Below, in pieces: positions 38,158 to 40,924 of a DNA stretch of 64,000 nt (the first letter of the stretch is position 1; every line of letters starts with the position of its first letter). The notes beneath the pieces are model-generated. The model saw only the letters and a program-made list of their open reading frames with translations. It did no database searches and was not told where the DNA came from. Location: assembly GCA_030390025.1 (NCBI GenBank), contig CM059431.1, positions 99,264,001-99,328,000 on the forward strand, given 5' to 3'. Position numbers and translations under genes: made by a program. This DNA is from Squalus acanthias (Eukaryota).

Positions 38158-39189
38158 CTATCGCTGCTGCGCTGGGACTGGGATCTCCCTGAGCTGCCTT
38201 AGCCTTGATCCTACGCCTTGGGACACTCTGGGGACTTGACCATATCTTCCTGGGCTGGGGTATCCGACTTGACCTACGGGGGCTACCGGGGGCAGGAACT
38301 CCAGGACCGACGGACCGGGTTCCGAGACTTCCACCGTGGCGACCTGTGGTCCCACCACAGTCGCTGGCTCCGCCTCCCCTAACTCCGCCTCCCTGAACTC
38401 GGGATCTGCAGCTTGTGGCACCGCCCTACTTGGCCCAGTAGGCGGCCCTTCACTCGCAGTCCCTACTTCCCTCGAGGGCAAGACGTTCAAGGCGGGCGGC
38501 TCGGGCTCTGAGGCGTCCATCGCCACGCCCTGTGGTCCCACCACAGCGGCTGGCTCCGCCTCCCCTAGCTCCTCCCCCCTGCGTTCGGGACCTGCAGCTT
38601 CGGCCTCCACCCTGTGTGGATCTCTATCTGCAGCCCCTGTCTCCCCTATACCTGAATCGGGGGCGACCCTTTCGTCCTCCGATTCCAGCTCCTCCTCGCT
38701 TGTGTCACTATCTTCGTCGAGCTCCTCGAACTCTTCCTCATCTGTCTCCCAACCCCAATAAAATATCTCACATTTTTCCAGGATGTCCTCTCCCCTGATG
38801 CAAGCTGCTTTGCCTGCCTGTGTGCCCTGTGGCCCTACCTGGGGCTGCGAGTCCCCACTCGCAGGTTTGGCCCCTGTGGTTGGCCCTTGTGCACCTGGCT
38901 TATACAGTTTGCACTGATTTAAATCCCTGCTTCTGGCTACCCCGTGGGCTGCCTTTATATCTCTGAGCTGTGCTTCTAGCATGAGCACGTCTAACTTTCC
39001 CATTAAGCGGGCGTTCTCCTCCCGCAGGGCCTGCTCTCTAAGCTGCCCTTCTAGCACTTCTATTTTTCCCATTAAGCGGGCGTTCTCCTCCCGCAAGGCC
39101 TGCTCTTTTGACCTGGCCTCCTCACAGGAGACCCCCTCCTGTGCGTGTCTTTTAAAAGGACACAGGTAGGCAGGCTGCGTGGGCTCTAG
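38158..39189 (-). CDS. ORFX: 343-aa unknown coiled-coil/acidic/Pro-rich protein in frame with gag after UGA-CUAG
   Basis: No stop from 39189 to TAG at 38158-38160; internal duplications (EQALREENARLMGK x2, ELGEAEPA.VVGPQ x2); acidic tract. Confidence 0.7.
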   Translation of the reverse strand, partial: LEPTQPAYLCPFKRHAQEGVSCEEARSKEQALREENARLMGKIEVLEGQLREQALREENARLMGKLDVLMLEAQLRDIKAAHGVARSRDLNQCKLYKPGAQGPTTGAKPASGDSQPQVGPQGTQAGKAACIRGEDILEKCEIFYWGWETDEEEFEELDEDSDTSEEELESEDERVAPDSGIGETGAADRDPHRVEAEAAGPERRGEELGEAEPAAVVGPQGVAMDASEPEPPALNVLPSREVGTASEGPPTGPSRAVPQAADPEFREAELGEAEPATVVGPQVATVEVSEPGPSVLEFLPPVAPVGQVGYPSPGRYGQVPRVSQGVGSRLRQLREIPVPAQQR

Positions 39190-40924
39190 TCATTGGGTAC
39201 CGGTGGACGGGGCTTCGGCATCTGCGGGGCCGGTAGCAACCGCCACCCTTCCATGCGAACTCATGAGGGTGCGCATGGCTCCCAACACTGATTCGATCGC
39301 GTCGGGATTGATGGGTGCACTAGCTCCCCTATCAGAGACAGGCGCCTGGGCTCGGACCGCGGGATTTCTATCCCTGGAATCCTTCCAAGGGTTCCTGCAG
39401 TTCTTGCGCCAGTGCCCTGTCTTCCCACACCCGTAACAAGCATTGCTGGCCTGCGGGGCGCGGTTACCCTCCTGATGCCACTCCTTTTGAGCCGGGGCTG
39501 CGGGTCGTACCTCATGCACCTTTCCCTTAAGGGGACGTGCTCCCATACCCCTGGTATTACAGTACCCTACCGTGAGTCGATTTAGGATCGACTCCTCTGT
39601 AGTGGCGGGGTCAGTGGGATCAAACCACGCTTTTGCCTGCTCCCTGACGGCTGGCAAACTGTTGGCTACTATACACCTGAGCCAATGAGTTAGACTGGCA
39701 CCGTTTAAATAGGCGCGCTCTGGCGCACCTGGGCAGCTACGCTGGTATACTGGCCACAGCCTGTCGGCGAAAACCTTCGGGGGTTCTCCCTCCATCTGCA
39801 CTGTTTGTCCCAGTCTAACGAACGGACCTTCATCGTCCATTCCCAACACTTCTAGGACCTCATCTCTTAGCTCCCCATAGGTATTAGTTCCCCTCTTGCT
39901 CTCGTCTGAGAGACACTGAAGGATCGAGCTGTCTAATGAGAATAACAGCATTTTTGCTTTTTCCCCATCATCGCAGCCGTTAATGGCTGCGGTTTGCTCT
40001 ACTTCCCTGAAATGTACGGAAGGGTCGTCTGACTCGGCCAGCTTCCGTACGTGACTGATCATAACCCTCAGCTGGTGTGAGCTGTGAGGCAACACAAGCT
40101 GGTTGAGGAGATCCCCCTCTGTCCCATCTGTTCCGTTCGGGCCCCTTTTGATACCCGTGACCGGACACAACGGTCCCGGCTTCACTTCTACCTCAGTGGG
40201 CTCTTTCTTTACTTCTACCACTTCCTCCCTCACCCAGGTTGCCGAATAGCTGGGTGGCGCGGAGGGCATGGTGGCTAATACTTCCTCTGCTTTGTTCGGT
40301 GGGGATTTCTGAAATCCCTCATCCACTAGCGGCTGGTGTGCTGACGGGCTGATAAGGCACACCATGCCGTGCGCTTTGTTCAAGGCCTTTTTAAGGTTCC
40401 CTATCTCTTTTTGGCAGACGCTGTGATCGGCCCCCTGAAATTTATCCTCGAGGGCCATCTTATATGCCGCCCTAACCCCCGTTAAGCTCTCTTCCTGGAC
40501 TTTTATTTGGGCAGCTAGGCGGGCACATCGTTCCTTTAATCTACCCTCACTCAACTTTGCCTCAGTGACCTGGCACTCGAGGTAATCTATTTTTGCTTCA
40601 TGGTGGTTGGCGACTAACTGGCGTTCTTGATGCAACGCATTTAAAGTCGTGATGAGCTGCTGCCCCCCCCGCGACCTTCTCGTCCATTTCCACCTCTAAA
40701 CTCTTGATCTGAGCTGCCTGCGCTAAGATGACCTGGTCCGAAATTTGGACTTGTCTTTTATAGCACATCAGCCAGACCGCTTTCTCCACTGCCTTTTTAT
40801 GTTCCTTGCTATCTGTCCACCTCTCGGCTGCCTCTAGTGGACGCTTATCCACCAGCAGGTCACTTATCCATTTCTTAGTCAAATTCACTTTTCCAAACAC
40901 ATAATCTGCTATTCTCTCTTCCAT
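39190..40924 (-). CDS. gag: Gag (coiled-coil N-terminus, late domains, capsid-like region, CCHC); one extra G in a G8 run at 40663-40670
   Basis: ORFs 40598-41017 and 39190-40635 join on removing one G; PSAPPSY at 40246-40266; CYGCGKTGHWRKNC at 39397-39438; in-frame ATGs at 40996, 40942, 40924. Confidence 0.85.

Follow-up and report, generated by a model that had tools for sequence, protein, structure and literature searches.

A pol-deleted class I endogenous retrovirus of Squalus acanthias with a candidate UGA-CUAG readthrough site at the end of gag

In gamma- and epsilonretroviruses, pro-pol is translated when ribosomes read through the stop codon of gag, which is in frame and lies past the zinc knuckle (PMC13517186; here and below as far as the available part of that text goes). 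Among epsilon-related viruses, those of salmon, of zebrafish and of a frog have UGA as the stop, and epsilonretroviruses bear extra open reading frames (ORFs) outside gag-pol and env (PMC13517186). Among animal viruses, UGACUA is the type II readthrough motif of Sindbis virus (SINV), O'nyong-nyong virus (ONNV) and Plautia stali intestine virus (PSIV), and in human genes UGACUAG gives at least about 1.3% readthrough, with 7.8% for MDH1 (UGACUAGAC) (PMC13517186). The stem-loop of most type II elements starts at a spacing of +9 to +16, with one at +2 (PMC13517186). For epsilon-like retroviruses, readthrough is without experimental verification and the cis signals are unclear (PMC13517186, section 4.1.2). 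A different point of comparison is the mouse intracisternal A-particle (IAP) family I-delta-1, described in the available part of PMC6466679 as partly deleted, non-autonomous proviruses with a gag-pol fusion acting in cis. Endogenous retroviruses (ERVs) of epsilon-like descent have already been described in chondrichthyans, according to the available parts of two reports (10.1101/2021.11.23.469661; 10.64898/2026.05.06.723177). The present locus lies in 64,000 nt of Squalus acanthias DNA (GCA_030390025.1, contig CM059431.1, positions 99,264,001 to 99,328,000), referred to here as the window. It is a young provirus that carries gag, an open frame termed ORFX, and env but no pol, and its gag ends in UGA-CUA-G.

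All features of this element are on the minus strand, and coordinates are given in the plus-strand numbering of the window. The main gag ORF (first ATG at 40458) closes with ACC CAA TGA CTA GAG. The stop and its context, CAA UGA CUA GAG, occupy 39184-39195 (UGA 39192-39190, CTAG 39189-39186; context UGACUAGAG). Downstream of the UGA the gag frame stays open for 343 codons, until a TAG at 38160-38158. The first-pass annotation of this DNA, made from the letters alone, had reported both the stop and the length of the frame behind it, and both were confirmed, as were its positions in plus-strand numbering. The open length is far above chance: a frame of at least 343 codons was obtained in 0 of 5000 dinucleotide-preserving shuffles of 38000-39189 (median 17, maximum 262). 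Each of the other five frames contains 5-20 stops within 38158-39189, where the ORFX frame has only its terminal stop, and the first codon position of ORFX is G-rich (0.475), as in coding sequence. As at known readthrough sites, gag and ORFX share a frame and are split by a single stop located after the zinc knuckle (CCHC, 39438-39397).

The nucleotides following this stop are those of the type II context (UGA then CUA, at best CUAG), which the first-pass annotation had called an established leaky context, and as such it is documented (PMC13517186). Across the window, CTAG follows 6 of 2185 TGA trinucleotides (0.27%) and CTA follows 21 (0.96%). The TGACTAG heptamer is not enriched (6 found, 7.7 expected), and it is notable for its placement only, because its count in the window is not above expectation. 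Compared at the protein level, Gag ends at the same position as the window Gag in all seven relatives for which the C-terminus is seen (P0001, P0002, P0005, P0023, P0024, P0026 and P0027), and four of the seven share its C-terminal Q.

ORFX consists of three portions. The middle one (residues 89-225, 38515-38925) is a probable remnant of the 3' end of pol. In a HMMER search of 1.84 billion representatives, the only match outside gag was P0009 (266 aa), which aligned to these residues with an E value of 3.4e-19; BLASTP of ORFX against P0009 gave 2e-26 and 43% identity. Residues 1-50 of P0009 in turn match residues 489-538 (78% identity, E 3e-27) at the C-terminus of P0022, a protein of the shark Heptranchias perlo that is labelled NYNRIN-like. 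P0022 carries Pfam matches to RNase_H (7e-14), Integrase_H2C2 (6e-19) and rve (8e-12), and its residues 493-535 show a sub-threshold match to an integrase C-terminal SH3-like domain (SH3_Tf2-1). P0009 overlaps the end of P0022, and therefore the homologue of ORFX 89-225 directly follows the last integrase domain, in one ORF, in a pol-bearing relative. This homology to a post-integrase tail identifies ORFX as a probable internally deleted pol that has stayed in the old pol frame. In sequence terms, then, ORFX appears to be what an internal deletion left of pol, and the earlier label of a 'non-Pol ORF' does not hold. The 3' deletion junction lies just ahead of LNQCKLYKP (about 38925). A pol origin of ORFX strengthens the idea that the stop is an old gag-pol recoding site.

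The remaining two portions are both repetitive. Residues 226-343 (38158-38514) form an acidic tail rich in Pro, Gly and Ala, in which a 141-nt repeat occurs twice in frame (38287-38427 and 38473-38613, 76% identical). Residues 1-88 (38926-39189) are coiled-coil-like, of unassigned origin, and contain a tandem duplication of 69-nt period (38984-39037 and 39053-39106, 93% identical, a unit of 23 codons). No relative of residues 1-88 was found by HMMER at E <= 0.001 among the 1.84 billion representatives. Residues 395-525 of the read-through product, which span the junction of gag and ORFX, were used in a word search that confirmed 0 of 485 candidates. The best score of residues 1-88 against a protein atlas was 0.84, below 0.85; Pfam gave sub-threshold coiled-coil noise only; and elsewhere in the window there was neither a second copy nor a frame signal. 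A derivation of this portion from a coiled coil of gag was considered and rejected, the similarity to P0002 (E 0.024) and P0001 (E 1.2) being too weak.

Between the repeats that bound the element, and likewise in ORFX, Pfam found no domain of protease, reverse transcriptase, RNase H or integrase. The general statement of the first-pass annotation that some retroviruses express Gag-Pol by readthrough agrees with what is described for gamma- and epsilon-type viruses (PMC13517186), and the setting is retroviral, with capsid matches, a motif like the major homology region (MHR), a CCHC knuckle, long terminal repeats (LTRs) and an env-like ORF.

The main gag frame is 501 codons long from stop to stop (39190-40695), of which the part from the first ATG encodes 422 aa. 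It includes an MHR-like sequence (QMEGEPPKVFADRL, 39798-39757) in addition to the knuckle, which is recognised by Pfam as zf-CCHC. A protein search with Gag found three relatives, including P0001, which is 55% identical over 97% of the query and comes from a skate, Rhinoraja longicauda, as does P0027. The HMMER search returned 19 proteins, none above 628 aa, of which 18 match the gag part; those with names are from Rhinoraja longicauda, Scyliorhinus torazame, Heterodontus francisci and Xenopus tropicalis. In a four-sequence alignment the MHR-like residues and the cysteines of the knuckle are invariant. An AlphaFold model of Gag built on an eight-sequence alignment has a mean pLDDT of 60.9, with 70-92 in its core. 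Its best match in the PDB is the capsid of murine leukaemia virus (MLV) (6hwx_A, E 5.8e-4), and every top match is a retroviral capsid. Superposition on the C-terminal domain of MLV capsid (6gza_A) gives a template-modelling score of 0.77, with a root-mean-square deviation of 2.5 over 87 columns. By its predicted capsid fold, MHR-like motif and CCHC knuckle, Gag is retroviral, the model being of moderate confidence. Pattern searches for gag gave 596 matches in metagenome contigs and 41 in viral contigs, none of which was confirmed.

The N-terminal piece of gag is a separate ORF of 132 codons (40598-40996), homologous to the N-termini of the full-length relatives P0001, P0002 and P0005. The frame changes at a run of eight G (40663-40670). 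Full-length Gag relatives are 588-628 aa long and are uninterrupted where the gag of the window breaks. Other copies of the element were available as contigs from four runs (X3, X6, X9 and X11) of three coded organisms, at a likeness of at least 85%. In these contigs a one-letter length difference at 40663 accounts for all of the depth in X11, X6 and X9, and for 1264.5 of 7991.1 in X3.

In overall design the locus is like the gamma and epsilon readthrough systems, namely Moloney murine leukaemia virus and walleye dermal sarcoma virus as well as the UGA-using salmon swim bladder sarcoma virus, zebrafish endogenous retrovirus and frog ERV, in that a single in-frame stop past the knuckle precedes a pol-derived ORF in the gag frame. 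In those systems, however, the downstream frame encodes enzymes, whereas ORFX has lost protease, reverse transcriptase and RNase H as well as integrase. The retroviral stop contexts given in the available part of PMC13517186 are UAGGGA, UAGGAU, UAGGGC, UGAAGA, UGACGA and UGAAGU, and UGACUA is not among them. In its immediate context the site is instead like the type II UGA-CUA(G) elements (SINV, ONNV, OPRL1 and MDH1), and its UGACUAGA consists of the same eight letters as the contexts of ONNV and MDH1 (PMC13517186). The type II elements belong to alphaviruses and cellular genes, whereas the present one is a retroviral gag stop with an unexceptional predicted structure. Judged from titles and listings, literature searches found no paper on retroviral UGA-CUAG readthrough or on such a site in shark epsilonretroviruses, and neither PMC4422223 nor PMC12690878 makes a statement on gag-pol recoding.

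With IAP I-delta-1 the element shares an internal deletion, an open frame derived from gag-pol, a need for proteins supplied in trans, and abundance (PMC6466679). Its pol is deleted internally with the frame kept, and its copies are many (thousands of contig pieces from the three coded organisms). The two differ in that the deletion of I-delta-1 fuses gag and pol in one ORF (PMC6466679), whereas here the gag stop is kept, a fusion would require readthrough, and env is retained.

An extended stem-loop is predicted at 39092-39179, beginning 11 nt past the stop, inside the +9 to +16 range of most type II elements (PMC13517186). Its tip is an 8-bp hairpin with a 5-nt loop (CACAGGAG/CUCCUGUG, 39143-39123). 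The first-pass annotation had noted two possible pairings here: the 8-bp hairpin is present in the minimum-energy fold, but GUGUC and GACAC are not paired with each other. The stem-loop as a whole has a folding energy of -40.8 kcal/mol, equalled or bettered by 4 of 200 shuffles, and a z score of -2.74. Among 265 control windows it is not exceptional.

The family is highly multicopy, with 8056, 442, 3046 and 719 contig pieces on the element in the four runs. Runs of at least six coded organisms also contain near-identical 31-letter words of 35000-40900, at shares of 0.19-0.67, which reflects either closely related hosts or recent spread of the virus between them. The 22 sequencing runs listed include none recorded as RNA. 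Env and its 450 nt of upstream sequence have more summed contig depth than gag, and the minimum, at 37856-38263, covers the ORFX 3' end and the spacer; this hints that env is common to more copies, contig depth being a poor measure. At position 38160 the contigs of all four runs carry, for nearly all of their depth, another letter than the window, so that a sense codon replaces the ORFX stop, and therefore the deleted-pol frame is longer in the family than in the window copy. When the stop at 38160-38158 is disregarded, the ORFX frame of the window sequence itself extends for about 48 codons more. Among the 12 length differences listed out of 52, none falls between 38283 and 39192.

The reading to which we give a little better than an even chance is that of a pol-deleted class I provirus with an inherited leaky gag UGA-CUA-G, copies of which, where gag is intact, make an occasional fusion of Gag to the deleted Pol. 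On this reading an internal deletion would have removed protease, reverse transcriptase, RNase H and nearly all of integrase, and would have joined an 88-codon stretch of unassigned origin to the long acidic post-integrase tail. The product would have remained in the pol frame, which is the gag frame in such viruses, and the UGA-CUA-G terminator of gag would most likely be a gag-pol readthrough site kept by inheritance. Where gag is intact, translation would mostly end there and yield Gag. A minor share of ribosomes, in the range of about one to several percent, would decode the UGA with an amino acid and yield a fusion of Gag to the deleted Pol, about 950-1000 residues long, whose Gag part could let it co-assemble into particles. 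The copying enzymes would have to come from pol-bearing relatives, such relatives being implied by P0009 and P0022 only. We infer the ancestral context, the leakiness in the host and the synthesis of the fusion; by analogy, a measurable leak in vivo is likely. A function of the fusion is not supported.

Several observations weigh against this reading. The gag of the window is frameshifted, and this copy is unable to make the full-length fusion. The frameshift, together with an ORFX stop absent from most other copies, marks it as a decaying member of its family. ORFX is without sign of purifying selection, because the two 141-nt repeats differ almost evenly by codon position (13, 11 and 10 sites) and only 4 of the 11 listed differences between the family majority and the window are synonymous, as are 4 of 11 in gag (one further difference in ORFX removes the stop). 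After a random deletion the frame would be kept by chance with odds of one in three. No difference between the window and other copies falls within 39184-39195 among the 40 listed out of 722, which is no proof of conservation. The stem-loop is not exceptional within the element: among the 265 control windows (91 nt each, 35600-40900), 7 are lower in energy and at least 12 are lower in z. An Rfam scan of 38800-41300 matched no readthrough element and no MLV-type pseudoknot family, such a stimulatory pseudoknot being placed about 8 nt downstream at type III sites; its sole match was to a long non-coding RNA, sub-threshold (19 vs 90 bits) and on the plus strand. The readthrough figures for UGACUAG come from human cells, not from cartilaginous fish. 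The first-pass annotation had also proposed that the first residues of ORFX (LEPTQPAY...) are the stump of the old pol N-terminus; residues 1-88 being without a relative, they are not callable as such.

Much of this would be expected if ORFX were simply a leftover of pol in a dead relic, with a UGA that terminates efficiently, a CUAG that is there by chance or irrelevant, and no fusion of any consequence. The open frame would then reflect a young deletion and a purine-rich, stop-poor strand. The lack of purifying selection in ORFX, the unexceptional stem-loop and the one-in-three odds of frame retention all fit such a view, as do the low contig depth at the 3' end of ORFX (37856-38263) and the decay of the window copy. 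It is harder to reconcile with a motif that is rare after TGA (0.27%) and yet stands at the one stop where such viruses recode, with the intrinsic leakiness of UGACUAG in vertebrate cells (PMC13517186), or with a frame that stays open past all 5000 composition-keeping shuffles. Most other copies, moreover, read beyond the ORFX stop of the window. We regard the relic as a possibility to be taken seriously, if a rather unlikely one.

Two further explanations concern the origin of ORFX itself. It could be an accessory protein translated from its own AUG at 39072 (304 codons) on a subgenomic or spliced RNA, its match to the gag frame being incidental. Such an AUG-initiated ORF is present, and the extra ORFs of epsilonretroviruses (PMC13517186) offer a precedent. 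However, no skipping joint that would bring the AUG at 39072 near the 5' end was found in the contigs of the four runs, none of which is recorded as RNA, and a crude scan of 37300-41250 gave no donor-like site of at least 8 of 9. Homology to the pol tail accounts for the ORF without a new gene, and the accessory protein is judged very unlikely. Capture of host or other foreign sequence, as in acutely transforming retroviruses, would instead explain only residues 1-88, with the fusion gaining a coiled-coil function. That portion is indeed unlike pol or anything else in the element, is coiled-coil-like, and has a recent internal duplication. Against capture stand the lack of any vertebrate or other protein match at E <= 0.001 among the 1.84 billion representatives, the empty word search at the junction, an atlas score below 0.85 and Pfam matches amounting to sub-threshold coiled-coil noise. 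It is judged very unlikely as well.

The leaky-stop reading can be extended, although we hold the extension to be improbable. A lineage of cartilaginous-fish retroviruses may use an alphavirus-like type II signal, UGA-CUAG with an extended stem-loop, for Gag-Pol in place of the UAG and pseudoknot of gammaretroviruses, and its abundant pol-deleted derivative may exploit that signal to add to part of its Gag a coiled-coil and acidic tail that biases packaging or assembly towards its own RNA. If true, this would be a cis-acting helper-parasite device like the fusion of IAP I-delta-1, but achieved by recoding. A UGA-CUAG gag stop in an abundant young family would be an easy natural test case for epsilon-like readthrough. 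It could show whether retroviruses of lower vertebrates recode by context-type signals rather than pseudoknots, and whether the frame of a deleted pol, placed behind a leaky stop, is put to use or only tolerated. At present the result is mainly a corrected annotation, that of a defective provirus whose 'ORFX' is a probable pol remnant.

The provirus as a whole is most likely a class I, gamma/epsilon-like, non-autonomous ERV with the layout LTR, primer-binding site (PBS), gag, UGA, deleted pol (ORFX), env, purine tract, LTR. Its direct repeats (40909-42686 and 33202-34980) are 99.38% identical over 1779 nt. As in class I ERVs, the repeats start with TG and are accompanied by a purine tract and a PBS-like 18-mer. 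The 5' LTR (41001-42687) starts with TGTAG at 42687, has an AATAAA at 41229-41224, and probably ends with CTTACA at 41001, a boundary that is placed by the PBS-like 18-mer beyond it. The 18-mer (40978-40995) begins with TGG and overlaps the gag ATG (40996-40994); it may resemble the 3' end of a vertebrate tRNA-Arg. The window contains no tRNA genes. With this overlap, the first residues of Gag (MATAAG; MATTKG in P0001) are encoded across the primer-binding-like site.

The purine tract (CAGGAGGGAC, 34981-34990) is directly upstream of the 3' LTR. The 3' repeat copy (33202-34980) extends 92 nt beyond the start of the PBS-like site and includes the first gag codons, after which unrelated sequence follows; its last part (33202-33293) runs into this second gag start before it ends abruptly. 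A target-site duplication cannot be seen at the element, because the 3' copy continues into the second gag start. This arrangement points to a second provirus, in tandem or partly deleted, and less to one simple insertion.

The env-like ORF (35430-37409) encodes 659 aa. In order, it shows a furin-type RQRR (aa 203-206), a hydrophobic and heptad region, a long middle and, after another helical region, the membrane anchor, whose single transmembrane segment is at about aa 608-630. The protein has no Pfam match and no PDB sequence match (best E 1.1), and no signal peptide at its ATG. Its neighbours in the protein atlas are Gypsy/Baculo_F and paramyxovirus Fusion_gly clusters at 0.91-0.93, which are leads only, and a single-sequence AlphaFold model is unusable (pLDDT 34.9). 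Of 12 listed env differences from the family majority, 9 are synonymous, which shows that env is under purifying selection.

Other mobile elements are scattered through the window. A separate LTR-retrotransposon pol at 10770-14191, also on the minus strand, has aspartic-protease-like, RVT_1, RT_RNaseH_2 and rve regions over several frames; it gave no match to the provirus and is unrelated to it. A pogo/Tigger-like transposase (DDE_1, HTH_Tnp_Tc5) is at 43164-44828, and a reverse transcriptase at 50154-51821 has a weak, sub-threshold GIY-YIG match (Penelope-like). A tandem array of 16 units with a period of 39-45 nt occupies 45333-46008. A reverse transcriptase of the long interspersed nuclear element type is encoded at 1982-3646, and dense repeats with a period of 8-14 nt adjoin that ORF at about 3680-5000.

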